Shown here in pieces: positions 10,388-63,374 of a DNA stretch of 64,000 nt; the stretch's first letter is position 1, and each line of letters starts with the position of its first letter. The position numbers and the translations under genes were made by a program. The DNA comes from an uncultured Gemmatimonadales bacterium (lineage in GTDB: Bacteria; Gemmatimonadota; Gemmatimonadetes; Longimicrobiales; Gaopeijiaceae): assembly GCA_963809895.1 (NCBI GenBank), contig CAWELD010000003.1:3072001-3136000 (forward strand), in the 5' to 3' direction. Below the pieces are notes generated by a model. The model did not search any database. It was not told the DNA's origin and saw nothing but the letters and a program-made list of their open reading frames with translations.

Positions 10388-10668
10388 GCCGGCGGGCGCA
10401 CCTACGACGCGGCTTTCGAGGTCTTGACGGGCGGCCCCGGTGCACGCGGGACAGGGCTCGAAGTCACAATGCAGCCCACAACGCCCCTGCAACCGACGCT
10501 CGGCCGCGGAGTGGCGAATAATCGCCTACACTGCAACCCACGGGGCCCGAAGCGCGCCGTCCGGGCGACATCGTGGCGAATTATTGCCCAATCCGGGGCG
10601 GATTGGGCTCACGGCAGGTCATGTGGGCGACATTCTGGCCAATCGCCGGCCACCCTCCTCCGGCGAGC

Positions 10669-46123: not shown

Positions 46124-46140
46124 GTCGCCGAACGTCGACC

Positions 46141-46196
46141 GGCGGCGGGCGCCGCTCGCCTCGTGAACCGCCCCCCCGGGCGGGGCGCCCGCCGCC
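46141..46196. terminator. GC-rich hairpin between convergent genes
   Basis: GGCGGCGGGCGCC / GGCGCCCGCCGCC 13-bp inverted repeat. Confidence 0.5.
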
Positions 46197-46209
46197 TCGA
46201 AGCGAGGCT

Positions 46210-47913: not shown

Positions 47914-48281
47914 TCTTCCCCTCCTTCCTTCAGGCGCTCGTCCACCAGCGCCCGCAACTCCTCGAGCTCCTCCTGGGTGAGCTCGCCCCGGCCGAGGAGG
48001 TGGGCCATGAGCATCCTCGGCGAATCGCCGAAGAGCTCGTGCGTGAGCCGCCGCACCGTGCTGGTCCGCACCGCGCTGCGCTCCAGCACCGGCAGGTAGC
48101 GATGGGCCTTGCCCTCGGACTCGTGCTCCACGTGTCCCTTGTCCTCGAGGCGCTGCAGGATGGTGAGGACCGTGGTGTAGGCCAGCTCGTCGGAGAGGCG
48201 CTCCAGGACCTCGGCGACCGTGGCCGAGCCCCGATCCCAGAGCACGTTCATGACGTCGAGTTCGCGAGAGGAGAGGATCAT
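47910..48281 (-). CDS. BlaI/MecI/CopY family repressor
   Basis: LSSRELDVMNVLW, LAYTTVLTILQRLEDKG and LFGDS. Confidence 0.95.
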   Translation of the reverse strand: MILSSRELDVMNVLWDRGSATVAEVLERLSDELAYTTVLTILQRLEDKGHVEHESEGKAHRYLPVLERSAVRTSTVRRLTHELFGDSPRMLMAHLLGRGELTQEELEELRALVDERLKEGGEE

Positions 48282-48396
48282 GGGATGCCTCGTGTGGGTG
48301 GCCTCGTGGGGAGGTTTGCTGGTGCGCCTGGCATGGGAGACCCTGGACTGGCGAGCCTGGCATGGGCCCGACAGGGGCGCCCCCTGGGGCGTTTGT

Positions 48397-48456
48397 TACT
48401 ACATGAGTAGTACGAACCTACGCCCGGCATCCCGCTAAGTCAACTACCTTTGTAGT
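48397..48456. promoter_or_regulatory. Two BlaI-type operators
   Basis: TACTAC-ATGA-GTAGTA (48397-412) and ACTAC-CTTT-GTAGT (48443-456). Confidence 0.75.
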
Positions 48457-48544
48457 AGGACGGCGGTCGAGGCGGGAGCCGGTTCGTCCCGCGACCGCCG
48501 TCTCCATGCGCCCTCGAGCCTTGGGCATCGCCGTCGCCCCCCCG

Positions 48545-48722
48545 ACATGGTCATCGCAGCCGTCGAGGGCCGGGCCGCCGGGGGATGGCTGCGAAGACCA
48601 GGATTGTCATGGTCTTCGCCGCCCGGGACCCCCGCGGCGCCCTCGGCGGCTGCAAACGCCAGGATAGTCATGGTCTTTGCAGCCGCCCCCATGGCCGGGC
48701 ACCGTCCCCGGCGGCAAACCCC
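48545..48722. repeat. Palindromic repeat element copy A (half + 2x37 bp + half)
   Basis: Units at 48587-623 and 48648-684 (GGCTGC...CAGGAT..TCATGG...GCC); spacers 25/24/25 bp. Confidence 0.9.
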
Positions 48723-48853
48723 GCGCTCGGCGCGAGCCCTGTCCCGGCGGTTCGCGGTTCGCGGTTCGCGTGGGAGCCAGCCGCCCTCGCTTCAGGCGTC
48801 GCCTGATTGGTGGCGCCTCCTCACCTCGGAGGTCGGGCCGGCCGCCGTACCGC

Positions 48854-48889
48854 TGTCGATTCCAGCCCCGCCCGTTCGTAGCAGGAGTG
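48854..48889 (+). promoter_or_regulatory. ECF42-like promoter copy 1
   Basis: TGTCGA-N13-CGTTCGTAG; 31/36 identical to 51469-51504. Confidence 0.6.
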
Positions 48890-49011
48890 GGAGGAGCATT
48901 CCTCTCGCCCGTGGCTCTTGACATCCCGCTCGCTGGAGAGCCTCTCTGTACCACCGCGGAGAGAGCCCTCTCGGCGAGCCATTGAACCCTCCGATCCGGA
49001 CGACCCTCCCC

Positions 49012-51438
49012 ATGCGGTACGCCCTCCGCTCGCTGCTGAAAGCGCCTGTCTTTTCCTTCCTGGTCATCCTCACGGTCTCGCTGGGGATCGGCGCCACCAC
49101 CGCGGTCTTCTGTGTCTTCCGTGGCGTGCTGCTACGACCACTTCCTCACGAGGGCGGCGACCGCATCGTCTACCTGAAACAGTCGGCGGCGAAGGCGGGG
49201 ACCGACGACGTGAAGTTCTCCGTCCCGGAGATCATCGACTTTCGCGAAGGGGTCGACGCGTTGGACGGGGTCGCCGAGTTCTCCGCCATGCCGTTCACCA
49301 TGCTCGGCGCCGGCACGCCGACCGAGGTGCGCACAGGCATCGTCAGCGCCAACTACTTCGAGGTGATGGGGCTGAGCCCGGTATTGGGCCGCGTCCTGGG
49401 GCCGGGAGACGCCGGCCCCACCGCCGATCCGGTCATGATCCTCACCTGGGAATATTGGCGTCGCGCCTTCGGCGAGGACCCGTCGGTGCTGGGCCGCACC
49501 GTGGAGATGAACGGCCGCTCGGCGACCATCGTCGGGGTGCTCGAGCCCGCGCCCCCGTTTCCAGGCGAGACGGACGTGTTCGTGAACATCGTGACGAGCC
49601 CCCACCACATGAGCGCGGAGATGGTGCACGGCCGTTCGCACCGCATGGACGACGCGTTCGCGCGTCTGGCGCCCGGCGCTACCATCGACGCGGCGCGCCG
49701 GGAGCTGGCACAGGTCACGAACCGGATGTACGCCGACTATCCGGAGAACTACGATCCGGCAGCGGGCTACGAGACGACGGTCGTGCCGCTACGAGAGGCG
49801 CTGGTGGCCAGAGCCCGCACGACGCTCTATCTGCTCATGGCCGCCGCGGGCCTCCTCCTCGTGGTGACCTGTGCGAACGCGGCGAACCTGGTGCTCACGC
49901 GCAATCTCCGCCGGGACCGGGAGTTCGCCGTGCGTTGGGCCCTGGGCGCCGGCCGGGCGGGACTGCGCCGCATCCTCCTGACGGAGTGCGGAATCCTGGC
50001 CGGCGTGGGCGCGCTGCTGGGGCTGGGTTTCGCGTACCTGGGCCTGGGCCTGCTGGTGCACTTCGCCGAGCGCTTCACGACCCGCGCCAGCGAGATCCAC
50101 ATGGATCCGGCGGTCCTGGCCTTCACGACGGCGGTGGCTTGCCTGGCAGCCGTGGCGTTCGCTTTCGCGCCGGGACTGCGCGATCAGGAGGGTACGGGCG
50201 CGGCCCTCACGCGCTCGGGCGCGCGCACGACCCGGAGCGGACGACGGCTGCAGCGAGGGCTCATCGTCGCCCAGGTGGGGGGTAGCGTCACCGTGCTGAC
50301 GGCAGCCGGCCTGCTGGGTCGCACGCTGCTGGCGCTCAACGCCGTGGACCCCGGGGTGCGGGTGGAGAACACGCTCACCCTGGAAGCTCCGGTCACGATG
50401 GAGGGTCGGATGCCCGACGAGGTCGTCGCCCTCCAGGAGGAGATGGCGCGTCGGATCGGGTCCCTCCCGGGCGTCGAGGACGTGGGCGTGGGGCTGAGCG
50501 TCCCGCTGCGCGGCAGCCTGGTCAAACTGGAGATCAAGGCGGAAGCGCGTCCGCTGGCCCCGGGCGAGCCGATCCCCCTCGCCGAGTACCGGACGGCGAC
50601 GCCGGAGTTCTTCGACGCGGCCGGGATGCGGATCCTCGCGGGCCGGGGGTTCGCCGCGACGGACGAGGCAGGCAGCGCCCGGGTGGCCGTCGTAAACCAG
50701 GCGCTGGCCGAGCGGCTCTTCGGCGATGAGGACCCCCTGGGCAGGCGGGTCACGTGGACGGGTCAGGTGCTGTCCGCCATCGGCATGAAGGAGGACTGGC
50801 GTACCATCGTGGGCGTGGTGAGCAACACGCGTGACGACGGCCCGGATCAGCCCCCGCCGCCGACGCTCTATCAGCCCCTCACGCAGAACGACCTGGCCTA
50901 CTATCCGGGCGCCTTCGTCATCCGCGGCGCGCAGGCGTCCGCGCTGGCCCCGCAGGTGCAGCGGATCATCAACGAGATGGCGCCGGAGCAACCGGTGCTC
51001 CGGGTCGCCACGCTGGAGCAGATCCGCCAGGAGAAGATCGCCGCCGAGCGGCTCAACACGTTCCTGGTGGGGACGCTGGGGATGCTGGCCCTCGTCATCG
51101 CGGCGGTGGGGCTCGCCGGCGTGCTCTCCTTCCTGGTGAGCGAGCGTACCGCGGAGATCGGCATCCGCATGAGCCTTGGTGCGGACGCACGCACGGTTCT
51201 GCGGATGGTTCTGGGAGACGGAGTGCGCCTTCTGGCAGCCGGCAGCGTGCTTGGCTTGCTGGGTTCGCTGGCAGTGGCGCGACTCCTCCAGGGACTGCTC
51301 TACGGGACCCAGGCCACCGACCCCCGCACCCTGGCGGTCGTGCTCCTTGTGATGACCACCGTCGGCCTGGGGGCGACGGCGGGTCCCGCCATGCGAGCCG
51401 CCAGGGTTGATCCCCTGGAGGCGATCCGCAAGGAGTGA
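49012..51438 (+). CDS. Duplicated ABC permease (ADOP family)
   Basis: MRYALRSLLKAPVF, CANAANL and EIGIRMSLGA; start 48982 or 49012. Confidence 0.92.
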   Translation: MRYALRSLLKAPVFSFLVILTVSLGIGATTAVFCVFRGVLLRPLPHEGGDRIVYLKQSAAKAGTDDVKFSVPEIIDFREGVDALDGVAEFSAMPFTMLGAGTPTEVRTGIVSANYFEVMGLSPVLGRVLGPGDAGPTADPVMILTWEYWRRAFGEDPSVLGRTVEMNGRSATIVGVLEPAPPFPGETDVFVNIVTSPHHMSAEMVHGRSHRMDDAFARLAPGATIDAARRELAQVTNRMYADYPENYDPAAGYETTVVPLREALVARARTTLYLLMAAAGLLLVVTCANAANLVLTRNLRRDREFAVRWALGAGRAGLRRILLTECGILAGVGALLGLGFAYLGLGLLVHFAERFTTRASEIHMDPAVLAFTTAVACLAAVAFAFAPGLRDQEGTGAALTRSGARTTRSGRRLQRGLIVAQVGGSVTVLTAAGLLGRTLLALNAVDPGVRVENTLTLEAPVTMEGRMPDEVVALQEEMARRIGSLPGVEDVGVGLSVPLRGSLVKLEIKAEARPLAPGEPIPLAEYRTATPEFFDAAGMRILAGRGFAATDEAGSARVAVVNQALAERLFGDEDPLGRRVTWTGQVLSAIGMKEDWRTIVGVVSNTRDDGPDQPPPPTLYQPLTQNDLAYYPGAFVIRGAQASALAPQVQRIINEMAPEQPVLRVATLEQIRQEKIAAERLNTFLVGTLGMLALVIAAVGLAGVLSFLVSERTAEIGIRMSLGADARTVLRMVLGDGVRLLAAGSVLGLLGSLAVARLLQGLLYGTQATDPRTLAVVLLVMTTVGLGATAGPAMRAARVDPLEAIRKE

Positions 51439-51468
51439 CATCCGGAACGCGCTCGCCGGCCGTGCCTT

Positions 51469-51504
51469 TGTCGAATCCGGCGTCGCCCGTTCGTAGCAGG
51501 GGTG
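51469..51504 (+). promoter_or_regulatory. ECF42-like promoter copy 2
   Basis: TGTCGA-N13-CGTTCGTAG directly upstream of the DGPF gene. Confidence 0.7.
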
Positions 51505-51552
51505 AACGGCTGCCCATCCGGCGGCCACCCACGCGAGAGGAGATATTCCGAG

Positions 51553-51882
51553 ATGCACTACCTGGTTTCCGTGATCGATGACGGTACCGGCGCCGCCACT
51601 TCCGCCGAGATGGAGGCCATCGACGTATTCAACGAGCGGCTCCAGGCCGACGGTCACTGGGTCTACGCCAACGGCCTCGCAGCGCCCGACGCCGCCACCG
51701 TCGTCGATGGTCGCGGTGAGGAGCCCATCTTCACCGACGGTCCGTTCGTGGAAACCAAGGAGTACCTCGCCGGCTTCTGGATCCTCGAGGCGCCCGATCT
51801 CGATGCGGCGCTCGAGCTCGCCGCCGAGGGTTCGAAGGCCTGCAATCGCAGGGTCGAGGTCCGGCCAGTCCTGAGCGAGTAG
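51553..51882 (+). CDS. YciI/DGPF family protein
   Basis: TDGPFVETKEYLAGFW and VEVRP. Confidence 0.93.
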   Translation: MHYLVSVIDDGTGAATSAEMEAIDVFNERLQADGHWVYANGLAAPDAATVVDGRGEEPIFTDGPFVETKEYLAGFWILEAPDLDAALELAAEGSKACNRRVEVRPVLSE

Positions 51883-51884
51883 GC

Positions 51885-53153
51885 GTGCCTGACGTCGGCG
51901 AGGCGGTCACGCGGGCGCACCGGGACGAGTGGGCGCGGGTGGTCGCCGCGGTGGCCCGGCGCTTCGGCGATCTCGACATCGCAGAGGATGCCGCGGCCGA
52001 AGCGTTCGCAACCGCCGTGGAACGGTGGCGGGCCGACGGCGTCCCCCCCAATCCCGGTGCATGGCTCACCACCACCGCCATCCGCAAGGCCATCGACTGG
52101 GTCCGGCGTGAGAGCAAGCGCGACGACAGGCAGAAGACGGCCCACATGCTGTATGCACCGGACGCACCCGTGCCGGCGCCGCGCGAGGTGATCGAAGACG
52201 AGCGACTGCGTCTGATCTTCACCTGCTGTCACCCGGCGCTGGCCATGGAGGCGCGGGTGGCGTTGACGCTGCGCCTGGTGGGCGGTCTCACCGTTCCCGA
52301 GATCGCCCGGGCCTTTCTGGTACGCGAGACCACCATGGGGCAACGGATCACACGGGCCAAGGCCAAGATCAGGGCGGCTCGGATCCCCTTCCGGACGCCA
52401 CCCGCGAAGGATCTGCCGGCGCGTGTCTCCGGCGTGCTCGCCGTGCTCTTCCTGGTGTTCAACGAGGGATACCTGGCGAGCGGCGCCGACACGGATCCGA
52501 TCCGCGAGGACCTTACCGGCGAGGCGATCCGGCTCACCCGACTGATCCGCTTGCTCCTGCCCGACGACGGCGAAGTGGCCGGCCTGCTGGCGCTGATGCT
52601 CCTTACCGAGGCTCGGCGCGCCACCCGGGTGTCGCCAGAGGGCGAACTGGTCACCCTCGCCGAGCAGGATCGCAGCCGGTGGGACGCGTCGCTGATCGCC
52701 GAGGGTCACGCGCTGGTGCGCGAGCGACTGGCCAAGGGCGTCGCGCCAGGTCGATATCAGATTCTCGCGGCGATCAACGCCGTGCACACCGACGCCCAGC
52801 ACGTCCGCGACACCGACTGGCAGCAGGTCGTCGCGCTCTACGACCAACTGGTCGCGCTGGATCCGTCGCCGATCGTCGCCCTCAACCGGGCGGTGGCGGT
52901 CGCGGAGGTGGACGGCCCGGGCGCGGGACTCGCTGCGGTCGAGCCACTCGGAGATGCCCTGGCCGATTATCACGCCTACCACGCCACCCGGGCCGATCTG
53001 CTGCGCCGGCTGGGACGCACTCAGGCGTCGCGGGCCGCGTACGACAGGGCCATCGAGCTGACCGCCAACCGCGCCGAGGTTGCGTACCTCATACGACAGC
53101 GCGATCGGCTCGAGCGGGTCGAGCACGCATCTCACACGAAACGAGGAGACTGA
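51885..53153 (+). CDS. ECF sigma factor with DUF6596/TPR extension (ECF42 type)
   Basis: GVPPNPGAWL, DERLRLIFTCCHPAL, LVFNEGY and ALNRAVA; flanked by DGPF genes. Confidence 0.93.
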   Translation: MPDVGEAVTRAHRDEWARVVAAVARRFGDLDIAEDAAAEAFATAVERWRADGVPPNPGAWLTTTAIRKAIDWVRRESKRDDRQKTAHMLYAPDAPVPAPREVIEDERLRLIFTCCHPALAMEARVALTLRLVGGLTVPEIARAFLVRETTMGQRITRAKAKIRAARIPFRTPPAKDLPARVSGVLAVLFLVFNEGYLASGADTDPIREDLTGEAIRLTRLIRLLLPDDGEVAGLLALMLLTEARRATRVSPEGELVTLAEQDRSRWDASLIAEGHALVRERLAKGVAPGRYQILAAINAVHTDAQHVRDTDWQQVVALYDQLVALDPSPIVALNRAVAVAEVDGPGAGLAAVEPLGDALADYHAYHATRADLLRRLGRTQASRAAYDRAIELTANRAEVAYLIRQRDRLERVEHASHTKRGD

Positions 53154-53156
53154 ATC

Positions 53157-53525
53157 ATGCCAAGGTATCTGGTAGCGGCGTACCTCCCCGACGACTACGA
53201 CCGGTCGGGCGAGAGCGAGGGGACGGCGGCGGCGATCCACGCGCTCAATGCCGACATGGAAGCGGCCGGCGCGCTGAAGTTCGCGTGTGGCGTGTCACCG
53301 GCCAGCGCCGCCAAGACGCTGAGAAAGGAGCCCGACGGCGAGGTGCTCGTCACCGACGGACCCTACATCGAGACGAAGGAACACATCGCTGGCTTCCTGC
53401 TGCTGGAGGCGGCGGACATGGACGAGGTGCTCGCGTGGGCACGGAAGGGTGCCGGGGTCCTGGCGGGACCGGTCGAGGTGCGGGAGCTCTACTTCCAGCC
53501 GGACCCGGGAGAAGCGACGGGGTGA
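53157..53525 (+). CDS. YciI/DGPF family protein
   Basis: VTDGPYIETKEHIAGF and VEVRE. Confidence 0.92.
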   Translation: MPRYLVAAYLPDDYDRSGESEGTAAAIHALNADMEAAGALKFACGVSPASAAKTLRKEPDGEVLVTDGPYIETKEHIAGFLLLEAADMDEVLAWARKGAGVLAGPVEVRELYFQPDPGEATG

Positions 53526-53596
53526 CGCCCGTCGGAGGCCTCCCGGGCCGGAGGCCTTCGCAGGACTCGCCGATCGCTGGCGCCCCGGGGTGGAGG

Positions 53597-53668
53597 CCCG
53601 GACATCCGGATCCTGGAGATCGCCGCGCGGCATCACCACAGCGGTGTGCGACTCTCGGGACCAGAACG
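53597..53668 (+). pseudogene. Internally deleted remnant of the AbiEi/DUF559 gene
   Basis: 53597-632 matches 58352-387 (35/36); 53637-668 matches 59209-240 (25/32). Confidence 0.75.
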
Positions 53669-53878
53669 CACAGGTGCCGGGTTCCGCCGGACCCGAGACC
53701 GCCGGACCCGACGCCCGTGCGCGCGGGACACGGGAGACGCGCGGAACCCGTGAAACGCGCGAGGCTTCCCGGTCGAAGGCACGGGGGCAGAGGCCGCGGC
53801 GCGCGCATGATCGTCACCGCCGCGGGGGGCATGATCTTGGCGGCTGTGGACGACCATGGTCATGGCACTGCCAGGCGG

Positions 53879-54056
53879 ACATGGTCTTTGCAGCCATCAA
53901 CCGTGAGGCCACCACCGGTCGGCTGCGAACGCCAGGATTATCATGGTGTCCGCCGCCCGGAACCTCTGCCACTCCCCCCGTGGCTGCGAACGCCAGGATA
54001 GTCATGGTCTCTGCAGCCATCCCCCCGGCCTTCCAGCGTCGCTGGCTGCGAACCCC
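53879..54056. repeat. Palindromic repeat element copy B
   Basis: Units at 53921-957 and 53982-54018; spacers 25/24/25 bp. Confidence 0.9.
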
Positions 54057-54205
54057 GCGCCGCGCGCGCCCGGCTACCGTCTGACACCCCGTCGTCCGCC
54101 ATCCCGGAGCCGACAGTGTCGGCGAGAGTGGCAGGGGTGTCCTGCGTTGCTTGGTGCCGGCGCATGAAGCTCTCCAGGCAGGTGCTCACGGAACCTGTCC
54201 GTCCG

Positions 54206-55702
54206 CTACACGCGCTCCGCCCAGGCCACGATGCCGCGGATCATGCCCTTGAAGATGAGGGCGTGGAGGGGATAGACGGCGTACCAGTACAGCAGCCCGG
54301 GAAGGCCGACGGGGTCGAAGATGGCGGTCTGACGTATGTTCGACCCTTCGGCGGTCGCGTTGACCTCGAACTGAAGCCAGGCGCGACCGGGTAGCTTCAT
54401 TTCGGCGTGCAGGCGGAGCAGTCGATCCTCCTCGACGGCCTCGACCCGCCAGAAGTCGACGGCGTCTCCGGGGCGGAGCCGGTCGGGATCGCGGCGGCCA
54501 CGGCGTGAGCCGACACCACCCACGAGGAGATCGAGGAAGCCCCGCAGCCGCCACAGCCAGTCGGCGTAGTAGTAGCCGTGGTCGCCGCCGATTCGCCGCA
54601 CGGCTGCGAACGCGCGGGCTGGGGGAACGGGCACCGACGCCGTGCGCGAGTCGACTCTCCGTAGCCCGAACGCGGCACCGCCGTACGGATGATCCGGTGG
54701 GGTCGACGGGAAGGCGTCGTTCCAGCGCGTCTCCGCAAGCTCGCGGTCCTCGTTGGCCAGGGCGCGGGCGATGGCCTCCGCGACCGGGCGCGGTGCGATC
54801 CCGGGAAAGAGCCGGCCCGCCGCGTCCGAGTCCACCACGGTCTCGTTGCGCAGGCTGTCGATGAGCTTGCGCCCGACCCGGGCGTAGAGCGGGGTCACCA
54901 GACCGAGCCAGAGGCTGGAGAGCCAGGGAGTCAGGACCGGAACGGGGATCATGAAACGGCGCAGGCCCCGCTGACGCGCGTACTCGAGCATGAGCTCGCG
55001 ATACGACAGCCGGTCCGGCCCCCCGACCTCCACCACGCGGCCACCGTCGGGGAGGGGGACCTCCAGCGCCGCGACCAGATAGGCGAGCACGTCTTCGATG
55101 GCGATGGGCTGCGCCCGCGTCGCGACCCAACGCGGCGTGATCATGATCGGGAGCTTCTCCACCAGCGACCGGAGCATCTCGAAGGACAGGCTCCCCGAGC
55201 CGAGGATGATGGACGCTCGAAACTCGAGGGTCGGGATGCCCGACGCCCGCAGGATCCTTCCCACCTCCTGACGGCTCTCCAGGTGCGACGACAGGCCGTC
55301 GCCCTCCCCCAGCCCGCCCAGGTAGACGATCCTGCGCACCCCTGCCGAGAGGGCCGCCGCCGCGAACCCCTCCGCCGCCCGGCGATCCCGCTCCCGGAAG
55401 TCGTCACCGGCGTTCATCGAGTGGATGAGGTAGTAGGCCGCGTCGACGTCCCGGAGCGGCTCGGCCAGCGAGCGCGGATCCAGCGCGTCACCCGCTGTGA
55501 CCTCGACACCGGCGGGCACCCGCGCCTGGAGGAACTGGGGGCGCCGAGAGATGCAGCGCACCGTGTGGCCTGCGTCCAGAAGCGGCCGCAGAAGCCGCCC
55601 GCCGACGTAGCCGCTGCCCCCCGTCACGAGAACCCGTAGGCGGCCGTCAGCGGGTGCCCGGTCCGGGAGGCGCTCCGGGGCCTCCATCGTGTCAGAGCTC
55701 AT
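54206..55702 (-). CDS. NAD(P)-binding SDR-like oxidoreductase with DUF2867 (YbjT-like)
   Basis: VLVTGGSGYVGG, YYLIHSM, HLESRQEV and AEMKLPGRAWLQF; ATGA-coupled to the upstream gene. Confidence 0.92.
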   Translation of the reverse strand: MSSDTMEAPERLPDRAPADGRLRVLVTGGSGYVGGRLLRPLLDAGHTVRCISRRPQFLQARVPAGVEVTAGDALDPRSLAEPLRDVDAAYYLIHSMNAGDDFRERDRRAAEGFAAAALSAGVRRIVYLGGLGEGDGLSSHLESRQEVGRILRASGIPTLEFRASIILGSGSLSFEMLRSLVEKLPIMITPRWVATRAQPIAIEDVLAYLVAALEVPLPDGGRVVEVGGPDRLSYRELMLEYARQRGLRRFMIPVPVLTPWLSSLWLGLVTPLYARVGRKLIDSLRNETVVDSDAAGRLFPGIAPRPVAEAIARALANEDRELAETRWNDAFPSTPPDHPYGGAAFGLRRVDSRTASVPVPPARAFAAVRRIGGDHGYYYADWLWRLRGFLDLLVGGVGSRRGRRDPDRLRPGDAVDFWRVEAVEEDRLLRLHAEMKLPGRAWLQFEVNATAEGSNIRQTAIFDPVGLPGLLYWYAVYPLHALIFKGMIRGIVAWAERV

Positions 55703-56580
55703 CCCTTCCAGCCGGGCCGTCGCAACACCAACACCGGCGTCCGGTCCCGATATTCTCGATATTCCGGGTCGTCTCCCCACTTCATCCGGGCTCGTTCTTC
55801 CAGAGGGGGGATGCCGCTGATGCGGGTCAGCAGGAGAAGGACGAAGACCGGCGACACGAGCGTCACGTATCGCCAGCCTTCGAGCTCAGGAAGGGCGATC
55901 AGCGCCACACCGAACCAGAGCACGATTTCTCCGAAGTAGTTGGGGTGGCGTGACCACGCCCACAGGCCGCTCTGAATGAAACGCCCTCTGTTTTCCGGCT
56001 CTTCGCGGAATCGTCTCTTCTGGCGGTCGGCAACGACCTCGATGGAAAAGCCGATGGCCCAGATCAGGATACCGAACGCCGCAGCGACTCCCAGAGGCTG
56101 CGCGCCCTCGCCCGTAATGGCGGCCAGCGCGCACGCCAGGGTCAGGAAGACCCACAATCCCTGAAGGGTCCATGCCGCGAGGAAACGCGAAAAGCTGGAC
56201 CGCATTTCGTCGAAGCGAGCATCCTTCCCCTCACGGTTGATGCGCGCGAACAAGAAGGCACCGAGCCGAACCGCCCAGACCAGCACGAGCGCGCCCAGAA
56301 GGAGCGATCGGGCATCTTCCGCGTCTGACGCCACGAGCGCAGACACGATGACGGCCACGTACGTGAGGCTTCCGGTGAGGTCGAAGAAGCGCTCGGTGCG
56401 GGCTCGATACGACGGCACGAACACGATCCAGTTGATCGTGAACGCGAGCACCCCGCAGACGGTGAAGACCGGCAGTCGGCCCACCCTGACGCCCCCCTGG
56501 CTTCCCGCCCACGCGACCGCCGCCCCCACGGCCAAGACGACGGGGATGACGGCCAAAGCTCGTTGTTCGGGCCGATTCAT
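55699..56580 (-). CDS. DUF1295 family membrane protein (steroid 5-alpha reductase-like)
   Basis: FFDLTGSLTY, WAVRLG, GLWAWSRHPNYFGE and SGIPPLE. Confidence 0.92.
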   Translation of the reverse strand: MNRPEQRALAVIPVVLAVGAAVAWAGSQGGVRVGRLPVFTVCGVLAFTINWIVFVPSYRARTERFFDLTGSLTYVAVIVSALVASDAEDARSLLLGALVLVWAVRLGAFLFARINREGKDARFDEMRSSFSRFLAAWTLQGLWVFLTLACALAAITGEGAQPLGVAAAFGILIWAIGFSIEVVADRQKRRFREEPENRGRFIQSGLWAWSRHPNYFGEIVLWFGVALIALPELEGWRYVTLVSPVFVLLLLTRISGIPPLEERARMKWGDDPEYREYRDRTPVLVLRRPGWKG

Positions 56581-56590
56581 GGTGCAGGCC

Positions 56591-56983
56591 TCACGTCCTG
56601 GACAGCGATAGGGTGCATCCACGAAGGGAGCGCAGCCGTTCTCCAGCGGACGCCGGGGACTTCGCCCGGTGCGCGGCCGCAGCCGTGCGCAACCCACAAT
56701 GGCGCAGCCGCGCGCCGGCACGCCACCGCTCCGGCCCTGGGGACCACGGCCATGGTCGCCGGCCCTCGCCGCGGTTAGACTCCGTTACGCCCTCGTCGGC
56801 GACCCGCTGGTTCCCCGCCCCGGAGAACGACGTGCCGAACGCCTTCACGATCTCCCGCTCCCACCTCTTCTCCACCTCGGACGTCGACCTCCGAAACGAG
56901 ATCACCGGCCACACGGGGAGCGAGACGGAGACCTCGAGCATTCTTCGGTCCATCGACCGCTTCGGTAGCGACACGTCGATCAC
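56591..56983 (-). CDS. Possible small hypothetical protein (boundaries uncertain)
   Basis: First ~70 codons have high GC3; both ends may be frameshifted. Confidence 0.3.
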   Translation of the reverse strand: MIDVSLPKRSMDRRMLEVSVSLPVWPVISFRRSTSEVEKRWEREIVKAFGTSFSGAGNQRVADEGVTESNRGEGRRPWPWSPGPERWRAGARLRHCGLRTAAAAHRAKSPASAGERLRSLRGCTLSLSRT

Positions 56984-57080
56984 CGGCTACCAGGTCCACC
57001 CCAGTCCGGCGCGAGCCACGCGTGTGGTTCCGGCCCGCGTCGCCTGGACGGTGCACGCACTGAGGGTATGAAGCGCGCGA

Positions 57081-57263
57081 TCAGCGCTCCGGGCGGCGGC
57101 GGATCCGGTTCTTCACCGAGTCGAAGCGGACGCCACGCATCCGCTTGACGCCGCTGCTCGTATCCTTGTAGACCCTTTTTCGGGTCGGGGGGCTTCCGTC
57201 CTCGTCGGACCAGAAGTAGGGGCTCGGTACGCCGTTCTTTCGGTCGATCTTCTTCCTGGCCAT
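57081..57263 (-). CDS. Small basic hypothetical protein (60 aa)
   Basis: GGAG upstream; MARKKIDRKNGVPSPYFW... Confidence 0.6.
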   Translation of the reverse strand: MARKKIDRKNGVPSPYFWSDEDGSPPTRKRVYKDTSSGVKRMRGVRFDSVKNRIRRRPER

Positions 57264-57325
57264 GGCTCGGCTCCGCTGTGCGGTGAGAAGGCTCCGTCGA
57301 TCGGTCGACCGGCGAAGATGGAGCA

Positions 57326-57655
57326 CTACCCTGCTTCGTCCGCGTCCGGATCGAGGTGGCCGTCCGTGGTGGACCTGCGCAGCTTCGCCACCTTGAGAGC
57401 CCAGTCGAGCTCACTTTCCGGACGATGATCCGGCATCCGGCCATCGGTCACGGCCCGGAGGAGATCCTCGGTCCTGTGGCGAAGCCCCTGATGATCCACG
57501 TGGGCGTGGCAGGCGTTCAGCAGATGGATGAGGCGGGCGATTTCGGCCTGATCGAGCCTGTGCGCCAGCGCCAGCGGCTCGATCCCGAGCTCTTCCGCTG
57601 CCGTCTGGATCGCCAGGACGGCGAACTGAGCGAGTTGGCCGTCGAGATCGTTCAT
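57326..57655 (-). CDS. Hypothetical protein
   Basis: MNDLDGQLAQF...; ATGA overlap with the upstream ORF. Confidence 0.65.
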   Translation of the reverse strand: MNDLDGQLAQFAVLAIQTAAEELGIEPLALAHRLDQAEIARLIHLLNACHAHVDHQGLRHRTEDLLRAVTDGRMPDHRPESELDWALKVAKLRRSTTDGHLDPDADEAG

Positions 57656-57951
57656 GGCACGTCCCACATCACAGGGGAAATCGGGCTGCTCCCGAGGGGG
57701 GATACCCGGATGTTGGCCGCAGATGCGAAGAACGGTGCCTTGCGCCCGTCGTCCATCGACAGCTCGAGCAGGCGCCCGCCCGAGCCCGTCCGGCCGAGGT
57801 GGCGCACCACCACGGCCGTCCCTTCGTGGGTCAGGACCCGCTCACCCGGCGAAGGCAGCCTGTCGGCGCCGCTCACCGATCCCGGGCAGCGCGCCGGGTC
57901 GACGCGCAGGGCGTTGATACCGCGGGGCCGCTCGATCATCGCGTCCTGCAT
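57652..57951 (-). CDS. Hypothetical protein (SH3-like beta-rich by eye)
   Basis: LPSPGERVLTHEGTAVVVRHLGRT...LLEL; coupled to the downstream ORF. Confidence 0.55.
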   Translation of the reverse strand: MQDAMIERPRGINALRVDPARCPGSVSGADRLPSPGERVLTHEGTAVVVRHLGRTGSGGRLLELSMDDGRKAPFFASAANIRVSPLGSSPISPVMWDVP

Positions 57952-58000
57952 CTCCAACTCTCCCGGGCCCGGGGGCCTCGTGTGCGGGCCAGGGAGAAAC

Positions 58001-58030
58001 AAAAAAAAACCCGGGCATCAGCGCCCAGGT
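58001..58030 (-). terminator. Intrinsic terminator in the 5' leader of the 57951 operon
   Basis: Minus strand ACCUGGGCG-CUGA-UGCCCGGGU followed by a U-run (A9 at 58001-58009). Confidence 0.8.
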
Positions 58031-58337
58031 TCGTTTCCTTTCTGGCATCCGGACCTTGCCGGATCGATTGCCGCTCTTGAAGCTCGCGGGACCCTCGGGG
58101 AGCGTCAAGGCACGGTCACGCCCGCATCGTCTCGAGGAAGACGCCCGTTCGGGCAGCCGTGCCGAGGACGGCCGCGGCGGTGGCTCTGCGAGCGACTCCG
58201 CCGGCCGATACCCGAAGGGGGCAGCGCCGCTGCCGAGCCGGCGCGTCCGAGTCGCCGCGGCCACGCTGCGGGCTCGGGCGGTTCCCCATGTCGCATCCCG
58301 CCATGGCTTCGCCCTGGAGAGCCGATGATTCTCCGGT

Positions 58338-59252
58338 GTGAGTGCCATCCACCCGGACGTCCGGATCCTGGAGATCGCCGCGCGGCAGCATGGCGTGGTC
58401 GCCCGCAAGCAGCTGCGTGAGGCGGGGCTGTCGCGAGGTGCCGTAGAGTATCGGCTCCGGAAGGGGGTCCTTCGAGCCCTGCACCGAGGTGTCTACCGCA
58501 CCGGACCGACGACGCCGCAGTACCAGGCGGAAGCCGCCGCGCTGCTGGCGTGTGGCGAAGATGCCGTGCTCACCCACAGGACGGCAGCCGGCATCCTGGG
58601 CATCATTCCCGAGCCCCGGCCCGAGCAGCCCATCGATGTCTCCGGCCCCCGCAGCCTGCGCGGTCCGCGCTCCGGTGTCCGGCTCCACCGCGTCGGACGG
58701 CTGCCCGACGACGAGGTCGAGCGCCGGCACGGGCTGGTCGTCGCCGCTGGGCCGCGGACGATCCTGGACCTCGCCTCCTGTCTCGGGCCCTACGACCTCG
58801 AGCGCGCCCTGGCGCGGGCCGAGCGGCGGGATCTGGTCACCCTCGATCGGGTCCGGGCCATCGCCGACCGGCATCCCCGCCGACCAGGCCGCGGAAGGCT
58901 ACAGGCCCTCCTCGACGACATCGCGGAACCGGCGCTCACCCGCTCGCCACCGGAGCGCCTGCTCCTGAAGAGGCTGCGCAGGGCGGGCGTCCCGCGGCCC
59001 AGGGCCAACGCCAGGATCCACGGCATGGAGGTGGATCTGCTGTTTCCGGACTACCGGCTGGCCGTGGAGATCGACGGCTACGCTTTCCACCGCCAGCGGC
59101 CGGCCTTCGAAGACGATCGCGGCCGCGGCGCCGCTCTCGCAGCCCGGGGGATCATGGTCCTGCGCTTCACCCCACGACAGCTCAAGACGGAACCCGACAA
59201 GGTGCTCGCACAGCTGTGTCTGGCTCTCGGTGCCAGGACGCCGACGCGCTGA
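58338..59252 (+). CDS. AbiEi-type antitoxin HTH + DUF559 (Vsr-like) endonuclease domain protein
   Basis: AARQHGVVARKQL...LHRGVY, VLTHRTAA, RTILDLA, TRSPPE and EVDLLF...LAVEIDGYAFH...DRGR...VLRFT. Confidence 0.9.
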   Translation: MSAIHPDVRILEIAARQHGVVARKQLREAGLSRGAVEYRLRKGVLRALHRGVYRTGPTTPQYQAEAAALLACGEDAVLTHRTAAGILGIIPEPRPEQPIDVSGPRSLRGPRSGVRLHRVGRLPDDEVERRHGLVVAAGPRTILDLASCLGPYDLERALARAERRDLVTLDRVRAIADRHPRRPGRGRLQALLDDIAEPALTRSPPERLLLKRLRRAGVPRPRANARIHGMEVDLLFPDYRLAVEIDGYAFHRQRPAFEDDRGRGAALAARGIMVLRFTPRQLKTEPDKVLAQLCLALGARTPTR

Positions 59253-59405
59253 AGTCCCGCCTGCCAGGGACCGTGGCGCGCGGGGCCCGTGAGACGCAGA
59301 GATCCGACCGACGCGAGGGGCAGGTGAGACACGAGTCGCTTCTCGGTCGGCCGGGATAAGGACTGCGGCCGAAGTGCGAACATGGCCGTCACAGCCGCCA
59401 GGCGG

Positions 59406-59518
59406 ACGTGGTCTTCGCAGCCTTCAACACTCGGACCACTACCCGAGGGCTGCGAACGCCAGGATTATCATGGTGTCCGCCGCCCGAGACCTCCAGCGCT
59501 CCCCCCGCGGCTGCGAAC
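59406..59518. repeat. Palindromic repeat element copy C (truncated in second unit)
   Basis: Unit at 59448-484; next unit breaks off after GGCTGCGAAC at 59518. Confidence 0.88.
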
Positions 59519-59523
59519 AACAA

Positions 59524-59564
59524 TGTAATATATTTTGGACATCTAGTCGTAAATATCTTACTAT
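59524..59564 (+). promoter_or_regulatory. Promoter/operator of the membrane protein-XRE operon
   Basis: TGGACA-N17-TACTAT; overlapping imperfect dyad TGTAATATATTTTGGACA. Confidence 0.65.
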
Positions 59565-59595
59565 TCGTTTGGACCAACCTCAACTGGAGAACGCC

Positions 59596-60153
59596 ATGAG
59601 CAGCATCCTCTGGTCGGTGGGAGCGCTGGTGGCGGGCAGCCTGATACTCTGGATCGTCGCCCGCTCCGTGATGTCCCGCGTTCCCGACTTCTCCGACGGC
59701 GGGAAGCCGCCGTCTACGCACCTTCAACGGGCGGCCCGCTGGAGCCTGTTTCTGGCGGGGACACCGGTCCTTGCCGTCGCGCTCATGCTCGCCGTGTTCG
59801 GTCTGGAGCGAGCAACAGAAGACGCAGGCCTTCGCTTCACACTGTACGGGCTCATCCTGGTGTCCCTCCTTGCCGCCGGCGGCGGAGCGTGGTGGGTCGC
59901 AAGACGCGGCCGGGCGCCTGCGGGCGGTATCGTACTGGATGAACGGGACCGCGCGATCCTCGAGCGCGCCCCGGCCGTGCAGTCGGTTACCACTATCCTC
60001 GTGCTGGCTGCTTGGACGGTCCTTCTCACCGAGCACTTTTCGGCCACCGGAGCGGTACCCCTGGTCTGGCTCCAGCTCGTCTTCTGGTCGTGTGTGACGG
60101 TGAACGCGCTCGGGCTGCCAGCGGGGGTGCTCATGGGGTACCGGAAGGGGTGA
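59596..60153 (+). CDS. Membrane protein (DUF2178-like)
   Basis: GGAG RBS, about 5 TM segments, DERDRAI motif. Confidence 0.75.
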   Translation: MSSILWSVGALVAGSLILWIVARSVMSRVPDFSDGGKPPSTHLQRAARWSLFLAGTPVLAVALMLAVFGLERATEDAGLRFTLYGLILVSLLAAGGGAWWVARRGRAPAGGIVLDERDRAILERAPAVQSVTTILVLAAWTVLLTEHFSATGAVPLVWLQLVFWSCVTVNALGLPAGVLMGYRKG

Positions 60154-60154
60154 G

Positions 60155-60379
60155 ATGGACACCGATCAGCTCAGAAACGACATCCGTCGACATCGCTTCG
60201 AGCGCAACGAGATGACGCAGCAGGAGCTGGCCGATGCCGCCGGTTGTTCACGGCAAACCATCGTGATGCTGGAAAAGGAGCGCTACAGTCCCTCGCTCGG
60301 ATTGGCCATGAAGATCGCCCGCGTCTTCGATGTGAGGGTGGACGATCTCTTCTGGCTCGACGGGGACGAAGACACATGA
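60155..60379 (+). CDS. XRE/Cro-CI HTH transcriptional regulator
   Basis: MTQQELADAAGCSRQTI...YSPSLGLAMKIARVF. Confidence 0.95.
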   Translation: MDTDQLRNDIRRHRFERNEMTQQELADAAGCSRQTIVMLEKERYSPSLGLAMKIARVFDVRVDDLFWLDGDEDT

Positions 60380-60427
60380 TCAACCATGGCCGGAAGGCGG
60401 ACCTGGCCGTCACAGCCGCCAGTGCGA

Positions 60428-60605
60428 ACATGGTCTTCGCAGCCGCCAACCGTCGGGCCACCACCCGATGGCGGCGAATCCCAGGATTATCATGGTGTCC
60501 GCCGCCCGCGACTCCCGCCGCACCCTCCGCGGCTGCAAACGACAGGATAGTCATGGCCTTCGCAGCCTTCGCCCTTCCCCACTTCCATCTCTGGCTGCGA
60601 ACCCC
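60428..60605. repeat. Palindromic repeat element copy D
   Basis: Units at 60470-506 and 60531-567; spacers 25/24/25 bp. Confidence 0.9.
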
Positions 60606-60686
60606 ACGCCGGGCACGACCATATTGTGGAACCGGGACGACCTGAAGTCCTGGCACGATCGGGGTCGGGTCTCTCATTCTTCTCGG

Positions 60687-63374
60687 ATGTCTGACCCCAT
60701 TACCCGTCTCAACCTCGCCCTCTCCGACCGCTACCGCATCGAGCGCGAGCTCGGCGAGGGCGGTATGGCCACGGTCTATCTCGCCCAGGACCTCAAGCAC
60801 AAGCGCTCGGTCGCCCTCAAGGTGCTCAAGCCCGAGCTCGCCGCCGTGGTGGGAGCAGAGCGGTTCCTGGCCGAGATCGAAACCACGGCGAACCTGCAAC
60901 ATCCCCACATCCTCCCGCTGTTCGATTCGGGCGAGGCCGACGGTTTCCTCTATTACGTCATGCCGTATATCGAGGGTGAGTCGCTCCGAGAACGGCTGGA
61001 TCGGGAGGGGCAGCTCCCGGTGGAGGAGGCAGTCCGACACGTCTCGGACGTGGCAGAAGCCCTGGGCCACGCTCACCGCCGAGATGTGGTCCACCGCGAC
61101 ATCAAGCCGGCCAACATCCTCATCCAGGACGGTCGGCCCGTGGTCGCCGACTTCGGGATCGCGCTCGCCGTGGGGAGCGCCGGAGGCGCACGCCTGACCG
61201 AGACCGGTCTCAGCGTCGGCACGCCGTACTACATGAGCCCCGAACAGGCCATGGGCGACGCCCCGGTGAGCGCCGCCAGCGACATCTACGCCCTGGCGTG
61301 CGTCCTCTACGAGCTCCTCGCCGGCGAGCCACCCTTCACGGGCGGCACCGCCCAGGCCGTCCTGGCCAAGATCATCACGGGGGGACCACCCTCGATCCTC
61401 GAGGTGCGGTCCGCGGTGCCGCGAAACGTGGACGCAGCGATCCGTCGCGCCCTCGAGCGGGTCCCCGCCGACCGCTTCCCTTCCGCGAAGGCGTTCCGGG
61501 AGGCGCTGGCCGATCCTTCCTTCCGCTATGGCGAGGATCCTGAGGCGACCGCTGGGCATCCCTCGCGTCGTCTTCGACTCGTCACCGCCGGCGCTCTCGC
61601 CCTCTCGGTGGCTACGACCGCGGTAGCGGTGGGGGCTTTCACCCGGCTGTCGGAATCACGAGGTCCCACGCGGGTGTTGACCCAGGAGCTGACCCTCGGG
61701 ATCGGCGCGCCCCGGACCAGCTTGAATATCGCCGAAGTGTCCGACGACGGCCGCTGGATTGCGTACAACGGCAGCGACCAGAGGGGCGTCGCCTCGATCT
61801 ACGTCCGGAACGTGACGGAGCAGGCGGCGAGGCTGCTGCCCGGTACGCGAGACGCGCGCCGTATGGCCATTTCGCGGACGAGCGACGAAGTCGCGTTCAC
61901 ACAGATATCCCTCGGACCGTTGAAGGTCGTATCTCTCGAGGGCGGGCCGGTACGGGTCCTGGCCGAGGGCGCCCAGGCGCGACCCGTCTGGGGGGACGAG
62001 CACATCTACTTCGTCAACGCCGAGCTCGGGATCAGCCGCGTACCCATCGAGGGCGGGGCGGTGGAACGGGTGACACCGGTCACGGACGACGGCGTGGTCC
62101 GAGCTCCCACCGACGTGTTGCCCGGGCGCGACGTCGTGATCTTCACCGAGTTCTCCCGCGGAGGGGGGGACGAAACGGTCCGGGCCCTTTCGCTCGCTTC
62201 GGGGGAGATGAAGACGCTCGCCGACGGAGCCGGAGGTGTCGTGAGAGACGGCGTCCTCCTCTTCGCCGCCGCATCGCAGGACGGCCTCGAGGCCGTCCCG
62301 ATCGACCCTGAGACCCTGGATGTAGCGGGCAAGCCGGTCACGGTGGCCACCGGGCTCGTCTCCGTCGGCCCCCTCTTCGGCGGGTTGCTGTTTCGCGTGA
62401 GCCAGTCTGGCGACCTGATCTACGGCATGGCCGGGCAACGCGAGGAGAGCGTGACTCATCCGGTGTGGGTCGATCGGTTGGGAAACGTCACCACCATCGC
62501 GACCGAGTGGCGCGTCTCGCCCGTGATCTCCGTGTCCTCGCTCGCTCTGTCACACGACGGCACCCGTCTCGCGGCGTCCAGCGGAGGAGCGGGCCAGAAC
62601 GACCTGGAGCTCTTCATACAGGATCTGCAGGGAGGACCTCTCCGGCGAATCGCCTTCGACGAGCCGATCAGCACCCGTCCCTTCTGGAGCCCGGACGACC
62701 AGGAAGTCTACTACTTCGAGGACCCCAGCGGGTCGTTCCTCGAAGGGAACCTCGTGGCCCGGCGGGCCGATGGAAGTGGTGATGCCCGCATCATCGTGCC
62801 CGACGTGGGCATCGGAGACGGGGCGTGGAGCCGGGACGGCGCCTGGATGGTCTTCCGGGTCGGTGTGCCGGCCCGCCCGAGCCGGGACATCTTCGCGCTC
62901 CGGGCGGGCACCACCGAGCCCATCGAGCTGGTGGCCACCGACGCCACCGAGCAGGCCCCGTCCCTGTCGCCGGACGGAAGGTGGCTCCTCTACCAGTCCG
63001 ACCGGACCGGGCAGCACGAGGTCTACGTGCGCCCCTTCCCCGAGGTCGACGACGGCCTCCAGCAGATCTCGCTCGACGGAGGGACCGAGCCGCGCTGGGC
63101 CCACTCCGGTCGGGAGATCTTCTATCGGGACGATGAGGGACGCATGGTGGCGGTACAGGTGGAGGCGGGCGACCGAGAGCTGCAGACGTTGGATCACGAC
63201 GTGCTCTTCGATGCCACCCCCTTCTGGTCGGACCCTGCTTCGCAGCAGTACGATGTCGCGCCCGACGACCAGAGGTTCCTGATGCTGCGAGGCGAAGCCG
63301 GTCGCAACAATCTCGTCGTGAGCTGGAACTGGTTCGAGCGGACCAGGCACTTGATCCAGGAGGCGAACCGGTAG
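60687..63374 (+). CDS. Ser/Thr protein kinase with TM and TolB-like PD40 propeller
   Basis: LGEGGMATVY, VALKVL, HRDIKPANIL, DFGIA and GTPYYMSPEQ; SPDGRW repeats. Confidence 0.95.
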   Translation: MSDPITRLNLALSDRYRIERELGEGGMATVYLAQDLKHKRSVALKVLKPELAAVVGAERFLAEIETTANLQHPHILPLFDSGEADGFLYYVMPYIEGESLRERLDREGQLPVEEAVRHVSDVAEALGHAHRRDVVHRDIKPANILIQDGRPVVADFGIALAVGSAGGARLTETGLSVGTPYYMSPEQAMGDAPVSAASDIYALACVLYELLAGEPPFTGGTAQAVLAKIITGGPPSILEVRSAVPRNVDAAIRRALERVPADRFPSAKAFREALADPSFRYGEDPEATAGHPSRRLRLVTAGALALSVATTAVAVGAFTRLSESRGPTRVLTQELTLGIGAPRTSLNIAEVSDDGRWIAYNGSDQRGVASIYVRNVTEQAARLLPGTRDARRMAISRTSDEVAFTQISLGPLKVVSLEGGPVRVLAEGAQARPVWGDEHIYFVNAELGISRVPIEGGAVERVTPVTDDGVVRAPTDVLPGRDVVIFTEFSRGGGDETVRALSLASGEMKTLADGAGGVVRDGVLLFAAASQDGLEAVPIDPETLDVAGKPVTVATGLVSVGPLFGGLLFRVSQSGDLIYGMAGQREESVTHPVWVDRLGNVTTIATEWRVSPVISVSSLALSHDGTRLAASSGGAGQNDLELFIQDLQGGPLRRIAFDEPISTRPFWSPDDQEVYYFEDPSGSFLEGNLVARRADGSGDARIIVPDVGIGDGAWSRDGAWMVFRVGVPARPSRDIFALRAGTTEPIELVATDATEQAPSLSPDGRWLLYQSDRTGQHEVYVRPFPEVDDGLQQISLDGGTEPRWAHSGREIFYRDDEGRMVAVQVEAGDRELQTLDHDVLFDATPFWSDPASQQYDVAPDDQRFLMLRGEAGRNNLVVSWNWFERTRHLIQEANR

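Follow-up and report, generated by a model that had tools for sequence, protein, structure and literature searches.

In a 64,000-nucleotide stretch of the genome of an uncultured Gemmatimonadales bacterium (hereafter the window; G000:C3:3072001-3136000, in a genome of 5.33 Mb with 69% GC that is 95% complete), we identified four copies of a dispersed element of ~185 bp, one of which adjoins a gene, P1, encoding an AbiEi module fused to a predicted nuclease domain (Table 1). The anatomy of the element, a lineage-specific pairing of gene and repeat, a common period, purifying selection, an invariant active site, and loci in filled and empty states were observed. The reading that we prefer, and to which we give an even chance, is that the element and the AbiEi-nuclease fusion form a dedicated pair, in which the arms of the element are bound as double-stranded DNA and nicked or cut, and the element is copied by repair.

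The element and its probable partner protein

A repeat search of the window placed four co-oriented copies of one family at 48541, 53875, 59402, and 60424. Copies A, B, and D are in register and consist of an 18-nt half-arm, 25 bp, a 37-bp unit, 24 bp, a second 37-bp unit, 25 bp, and a half-arm; this layout and the truncation of copy C, both proposed in a first-pass annotation of the sequence, were recovered by the search and the in-register parse. The P1-family object is a single oriented element of ~185 bp with six inverted 18-bp arms and a period of 61-62 bp, and it is equally readable as three tandem arm-spacer-arm blocks. Spacers diverge more than repeats, as had also been noted, with 42-48% identity within a position (32-38% when shuffled) compared with 76% pairwise identity for the 37-bp units. 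The spacers are homologous by position between copies, which points to one element copied many times rather than to a CRISPR-like array, in which each spacer is unique. Across the 21 copies that could be parsed, drawn from four genomes, the first spacer is 25 or 24 bp long (15 and 6 copies), the middle one 24 or 25 bp (20 and 1), and the last one 25, 24, or 23 bp (13, 6, and 2), the outer spacers having been searched in the range of 23-26 bp only. The near-identical duplicate at C10:764946 was dropped from this set, and copy C, having a single unit, was unparsable. Copy D is 83% identical over 157 bp to copy C plus the pre-repeats of C. The genome-wide count that the first-pass annotation had called for gave 15 loci in G000, all outside called genes as defined by a simple purpose-made gene caller, and the pattern search yielded 28+28 matches vs 0+0 in the reversed control.

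A structure model of P1 built with 105 homologues reached a pLDDT of 88.6. Residues 4-196 matched AbiEi from S. agalactiae (6y8q; Foldseek E 7e-6, Z 12.4, 181 aligned residues, root-mean-square deviation 4.4) and Rv2827c (Z 9.7), and residues 200-302 matched NGO0050 (Z 14.0), the catalytic domain of I-Bth0305I (3r3p; Z 13.8, root-mean-square deviation 2.5 Å), and Vsr (Z 11.3). According to the model, P1 is a full AbiEi fused to a Vsr/EDxHD homing-endonuclease-like domain; NCBIfam gave no match for the P1 nuclease. Residues S203, E206, D233, E244, D246, H251, and D260 are invariant in the 105 homologues and, by our own mapping, are spaced like E170, D196, N208, H213, and D222 of I-Bth0305I (PMC3239194). 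The E, D, x, H, D series of the EDxHD enzymes is represented in P1 by E206, D233, D246, H251, and D260. The dN/dS values among three P1 orthologues, 0.15-0.23, indicate purifying selection. Both halves of P1 have relatives whose footprint equals the period of the array: I-Bth0305I is a dimer with contacts to up to 60 bp (PMC3239194), and AbiEi binds 23-bp inverted repeats as monomers on double-stranded DNA, with Rv2827c occupying four such repeats separated by gaps of 13 bp and 4 bp (PMC7319586), a period of 63 bp by our own sum of the published repeat and gap lengths.

As the first-pass annotation held, one copy lies 3' of the intact AbiEi+DUF559 gene, identified by its Pfam matches, and another 3' of a deleted remnant of it. 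In the alignment, 53597-53635 matches 58352-58390 and 53637-53844 matches 59209-59421, which corresponds to an internal deletion of ~820 bp. Together with the cassette bracketed by copies C and D, the remnant indicates that deletion and gain occur at element sites. No convincing orthologue of the 185-aa cassette protein was found among 40 relatives. The CCATGG motif upstream of P1 is likely the promoter of a leaderless transcript. A CCATGG-N5-CCCCG-like motif was also present in the regular-expression match list for 19 of 47 P1 homologues, at -33 to -73 in eight of them (without a control).

Pairing of genes and repeat families

Five near full-length paralogues (P1-P5, P4 being frameshifted) and one fragment were identified in G000. 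When intergenic DNA was compared all against all, without reference to the paralogues, three dispersed families with a dominant lag of 61-63 bp emerged. The P1 family has one of its 15 loci beside P1; in the P5 family (20 loci), one locus adjoins P5 and another, diverged, adjoins P4; and members of the P3 family (23 loci) flank P3 on either side. A search seeded with the P2 flank gave the P2 family, which has three further clear loci and a weak one. An element was found 60-187 bp from all five paralogues, compared with 81 of 4155 called genes having one within 250 bp. Both the enrichment of repeats near DUF559 genes and the presence of an own repeat family for each paralogue, which had been put forward for testing, were thus found in G000 (5/5 paralogues, four families), and the latter also in relatives. 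The arrays are downstream of the gene for P1, P2, and P4, and the P5 array is located between a CCATGG motif and the gene. P4, at G000:C10:855735-856605, has an array that is a diverged relative of the P5 family without close copies elsewhere. At G000:C10:560764-561789 and C3:1952349-1953204, P3-family elements form expanded tandem arrays with a period of ~250-280 bp and interleaved G-rich low-complexity tracts.

Among the 41 genomes of the relatives set, the P1 pattern was found in two, G000 and G002, the same two that have a P1 orthologue, and among 401 genomes of the phylum in G000 alone, G002 being outside that sample. No relative but G002 has a close P1 orthologue (81%); the remaining matches, the G000 paralogues among them, do not exceed 51%. 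A scan of genomes of all species recovered the P1 pattern in three other genomes, G002, G424, and G425, and G424 also carries an 81% P1 orthologue. In G002 and G424, the array is located 30-170 bp directly downstream of the orthologue, among gene neighbors unlike those in G000; the P1 gene is intergenic, at a different site in each of the three genomes, and no target allele for homing was identified. Records with the P1 repeat or protein are assigned to Gemmatimonadota or Longimicrobiales. As judged from sequence, the link between the P1 repeat and the AbiEi+DUF559 gene holds across genomes and gene neighborhoods.

The P5-family pattern was found in one of the 41 genomes. Arrays of ~175-180 bp, picked by eye, are present beside homologues in G028, G032, and G015, with 8, 8, and 4 sites in the respective home genome; a search of four further genomes for each array found none except beside a sister gene in G016. 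In a quick tree of 47 proteins, with SH-aLRT support only, the sisters that share repeats are P4 and P5 (98), P3 and G040_a (90), and G015_a and G016_a (91). Flank sequence is shared by 7 of 18 pairs at ≥55% protein identity vs 1 of 1063 below it, where the matches G003_d/G015_d, G015_b/G016_a, and G014_a/G019_b are counted as shared flank sequence and not as arrays. A best self-repeat lag of 60-63 bp was observed in 31 of 89 homologue flanks (27 of 47 genes) vs 96 of 826 non-coding control flanks (273 of 1500 genes), and this period is common to the homologue flanks although the repeat sequences are unrelated. A metagenome scan with the single P1 protein found no relative, and a scan with an alignment found distant homologues only (27-45%), none of ~30 close relatives being among them. 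At metagenome loci L101, L105, and L076, homologues at 28-39% identity have flanking repeats with lags of 71-74 bp.

Proposed binding and spread, and alternative explanations

In the mechanism that we propose, the AbiEi module of the predicted protein would bind the inverted arms as double-stranded DNA, one module per arm, and the nuclease would act as a dimer with a footprint of ~60 bp, giving three footprints per element. The nuclease domains would come together at a dyad to nick or cut the DNA, either at the spacer centre or at the unit centre; the former would account for spacers that are constant in length but free in sequence and for an element made up of three complete footprints, and the latter would explain why the element ends where it does. 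Recombinational repair would then copy the element, a variable flank, and sometimes the gene itself to new sites. We infer that the nuclease spreads the repeats, and that recombinational repair is the route, because neither a transposase domain nor a target duplication was observed.

Filled and empty sites, whose comparison the first-pass annotation had proposed, were both found at the locus C3:539760. The gene preceding the element there, which we take to be guaA from its C-terminal motif, abuts a convergent gene, presumably RidA-like, in four of seven relatives and is followed by another gene in the other three; no element was seen by eye at this place in any of the seven. In G000, 1.43 kb intervene, comprising a P1-family element and, after a gap of 10 bp, a P2-family element, together with a gene copy truncated at its 5' end (truncated 80% copy plus P2-family element, C3:539947-541097). 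The full paralogue of the truncated gene, a 376-aa gene at 9257-10387 of the window, is likewise followed by a P2-family element (10462-10645). One metagenome contig has the two genes joined with 23 letters between them, and two contigs from separate studies have the P1 element alone, followed by 35 letters to the second gene. The locus thus occurs in empty, single-element, and double-element-plus-cargo states. In addition, element-plus-flank duplicates of 366 bp (94%) and 241 bp (90%), both recent, were found at unrelated loci. A target-site duplication, which along with terminal inverted repeats marks a MITE of a DDE insertion sequence, was not seen at these two duplicates. In G424, an element is located 10 bp after a gene whose 89%-identical orthologue in G000 has none, and the region of G425 orthologous to 56749-58109 of the window continues into another gene, with neither P1 nor an array. 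For copies A-D, no clean empty site was found among reads aligned over the window. Convergent gaps hold 21 of 63 elements, compared with 57/670, a preference that argues against a regulon.

The first-pass annotation had the repeats act as hairpins, and the same gene-repeat pair could have single-stranded hairpin DNA as its substrate, as in RAYT/REP and Ssn/SRM. The inverted arms, the lack of target duplication, and the excess in convergent gaps would all suit such a substrate, and whole elements fold stably compared with shuffles (z -0.9 to -8.5), but via different registers in different copies. In the P1 family, none of seven pairing registers was better within than between copies, with or without wobble (21 copies; lowest p 0.056), the pairing of arm 2 with arm 3 including wobble being borderline (p 0.056-0.061), and five tests in the P5 family found no stem covariation either (16 copies, p 0.29-1.0). 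Covariation was seen between arms of the same sense (arm 3 with arm 5, p<0.001, 21 copies), a pattern that tandem duplication or conversion would produce. The spacers show no more folding than shuffled sequences (mean z -0.16, 0.06, and 0.29; 4 of 63 below -2), whereas REPIN spacers are hairpins of variable length, and characterized AbiEi proteins bind double-stranded repeats (PMC7319586). Conserved symmetric sites, fixed spacing, and missing stem covariation favor a double-stranded site, and protein binding to double-stranded DNA would fit better than RNA or single-strand structure. The hairpin was thus not borne out as the working form, and we consider this substrate unlikely.

It is likewise unlikely that the arrays are bound without being spread, as AbiEi-type operators or host-co-opted sites dispersed by general recombination or by another mover. 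AbiEi proteins autoregulate through such arrays (PMC7319586), the P5 array has the position of an operator between CCATGG motif and gene, and the genes are under purifying selection; however, the P1, P2, and P4 arrays are downstream of their genes, a third of the copies are in convergent gaps, where there is no promoter for them to regulate, and the nuclease active site is invariant. In G000, no Y1 transposase was matched and none of three GIY-YIG matches is beside the listed element loci. Very improbable is the structured non-coding RNA partner, or guide, of the nuclease that had also been suggested. The element is oriented and has a conserved left end, and co-transcription with the neighboring gene is conceivable for copy C and the P5 array, but there is no covariation and no common fold, Rfam gave no match at E≤1 over 46000-62000, and spacers that are homologous by position are not guide-like. 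Coincidence, with gene and repeats sharing tolerant, variable genome regions, is scarcely credible and already largely refuted: element neighbors are more often multi-copy (at least five paralogues in 21% vs 8%) and different families are sometimes side by side, but the one-to-one match of family and paralogue is kept across genomes and gene neighborhoods.

Several observations weigh against a dedicated nuclease-repeat pair that spreads by cutting and repair. A nuclease that cuts sites in its own genome would be toxic unless held in check. No precise empty site was found, the junction contigs carrying 23 and 35 other letters, stemming from related organisms, and having a depth of 2-3. G425 has the repeat, but no P1 orthologue was found in it (its completeness is not given). 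There is no correlation between protein and flank similarity over all 1081 pairs (Spearman 0.03), and several sister pairs share no flank sequence. The enrichment of the 60-63-bp lag (Fisher p 9e-8) is overstated, kin not being independent, and 20 of 47 homologues lack this lag in either flank. Among distant metagenome homologues, the lag is present in just 5 of 72 flanks, with a few at 71-74 bp, so the period appears to be a property of this clade, and the data suggest that other clades use another one. Finally, the permutation test for covariation has limited power, and the hairpin substrate is therefore only lowered by it.

More broadly, and as a tentative proposal, the pair may represent a third, unrelated class of bacterial nuclease-repeat replicators, acting on double-stranded DNA, in which each AbiEi-EDxHD fusion would have a private 18-bp arm, three dimers of ~61 bp would occupy a six-arm element, and cutting would spread element, gene, and cargo without a transposase. 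If so, the fusion family would amount to a naturally occurring collection of TALEN-like long-site nucleases, the target of each being readable from the DNA beside its gene. A very common orphan family, annotated as AbiEi antitoxin or very-short-patch-repair endonuclease, gains a candidate substrate in the adjoining array, and an explanation is offered for dispersed palindromic repeats in genomes without RAYT. The five paralogues and four repeat families in one genome permit a direct specificity matrix, and the enzymes, if they cut, would be long-site nucleases with naturally varied specificities.

Other repeats and comparison with known systems

The features of the window are listed in Table 1.

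Table 1. Positions of elements, genes, and motifs in the window.
Feature	Positions	Strand	Basis
Copy of the second (P2) element family, the family beside P2 (G000:C3:3055932)	10462..10645	.	Family search
Element copy A: half-arm, units 48587-48623 and 48648-48684, half-arm; between divergent BlaI-like and ABC-permease genes	48544..48727	+	Repeat search, Pfam
Remnant of the nuclease gene after an internal deletion: 39 bp from the 5' part joined to the 3' end and downstream linker	53597..53844	+	Alignment
Element copy B: units 53921-53957 and 53982-54018; 3' of the nuclease-gene remnant, between convergent genes	53878..54061	+	Repeat search
CCATGG-N5-CCC(C/T)G motif, 37 bp upstream of the P1 start; equal position in the G002 and G424 orthologues	58301..58316	+	Sequence comparison
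P1, 304 aa: AbiEi (winged helix-turn-helix and C-terminal domain, residues 4-196) fused to Vsr/EDxHD-like nuclease domain (residues 200-302)	58338..59252	+	Pfam AbiEi_4 + DUF559, structure model
Degenerate pre-repeats, 27-bp period, upstream of copy C; related ones also before B and D	59367..59404	+	Repeat search
Element copy C: adjoins P1; broken 10 nt into the second unit	59405..59518	+	Repeat search
Accessory two-gene cassette (185-aa protein without Pfam match, and HTH_3), flanked by copies C and D	59596..60379	+	Pfam
Element copy D: units 60470-60506 and 60531-60567	60427..60610	+	Repeat search

Upstream of the ABC permease and of a YCII-sigma-YCII cluster, a 51-bp direct repeat (80%; 48839-48889 and 51454-51504) ends in CCCGTTCGTAGCAGG and is possibly a shared promoter. 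At 57665-58109, G425 holds a gene, presumably cold-shock-like, behind a leader that is kept in G000 at 57987-58109, and G000 has a different 320-bp segment there. Other repeats were found elsewhere in G000. The perfect 14-bp palindrome GTTTCAGCTGAAAC has 19 sites in 18 clusters, including C3:3136692 just past the window; these are partly inside genes and tied to no paralogue. An element of ~300 bp with CTAGCAGGTCGCTGAAGAAG-type ends has 13 members (e.g., C3:949625-949925 and C3:958787-959087). Two clustered intergenic families, of 27 members (G000:C10:603395-644243) and 15 members (C3:3213469-3262749), were set aside; we take them to be attC sites of two large integron arrays.

In agreement with the first-pass proposal of a nuclease-plus-repeat unit without RAYT or Cas, the Y1/HUH (RAYT) transposase family PF01797 had no match in G000 (95% complete), the control matching in 6 of 14 genomes, and Cas1 (PF01867) had none in G000. 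A CRISPR array was rejected, as there is no cas1, the spacers are homologous by position, and Rfam gave no match. An AbiE type IV toxin-antitoxin pair was rejected on the missing toxin gene beside P1, the two-domain AbiEi fold being present; among the neighbors of P1, the one paralogue for which this was searched, no Pfam match to the AbiEii nucleotidyltransferase toxin was found. Membership of REP/REPIN-RAYT was rejected, as G000 has no Y1 transposase and the spacers are not hairpins, and so was Ssn/SRM, as the gene flanked is AbiEi+DUF559 and the three GIY-YIG matches are not beside the listed element loci.

In the literature searched, which left subscription journals and bioRxiv supplements outside, no paper ties DUF559/COG2852 or AbiEi fusions to dispersed repeats. 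A review groups DUF559 with Vsr and a homing endonuclease, its available text giving no link to repeats (PMC3424549), and neither the available text of a survey of GTAG/CGTC repeats (PMC3733652) nor that of the Ssn/SRM paper (PMC11893778) mentions DUF559, the latter not mentioning Vsr either. The pairing is real and undescribed in the literature searched; the arrangement of a nuclease with its cognate repeat is already known from REP/RAYT and Ssn/SRM.

REP/RAYT systems likewise have dispersed intergenic inverted repeats in several families, each beside its own single-copy enzyme gene and without target duplication, but here the partner is AbiEi with a Vsr/EDxHD domain, the spacers are of fixed length and unstructured, and copies number 4-23 and not hundreds (PMC3337134). 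A REPIN is an inverted doublet whose spacer forms a hairpin and varies in length. In Ssn/SRM (NTS), a nuclease gene has cognate palindromic repeats at its flanks and others dispersed, in lineage-specific pairs; Ssn, however, is a single-domain GIY-YIG protein that cuts single-stranded hairpins, in contrast to the three domains, sequence-reading AbiEi, and phased six-arm array found here (PMC11893778). The AbiEi antitoxins of S. agalactiae and Rv2827c share with P1 the two-domain fold and tandem inverted-repeat pairs, with a period of ~63 bp in the Rv2827c promoter, but in P1 a nuclease domain is fused, no toxin gene is beside it, and the arrays are often downstream and dispersed genome-wide (PMC7319586). 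I-Bth0305I resembles P1 in catalytic fold, residue spacing (catalysis by P1 being predicted), bipartite design of DNA-binding and nuclease parts, and a dimer footprint of ~60 bp, whereas P1 is a free-standing chromosomal gene, outside any intron or intein, whose presumed sites adjoin the gene itself and recur in many copies that lack it, the opposite of a homing enzyme's invasion of an empty allele (PMC3239194). The comparison points to a third origin of domesticated nuclease-repeat pairs, in addition to HUH/RAYT and GIY-YIG/Ssn, in which double-stranded DNA may be what is recognized. To these systems, the present locus adds a fixed period of 61-63 bp without stem covariation, the assignment of the predicted AbiEi and EDxHD folds, and a locus in three states.

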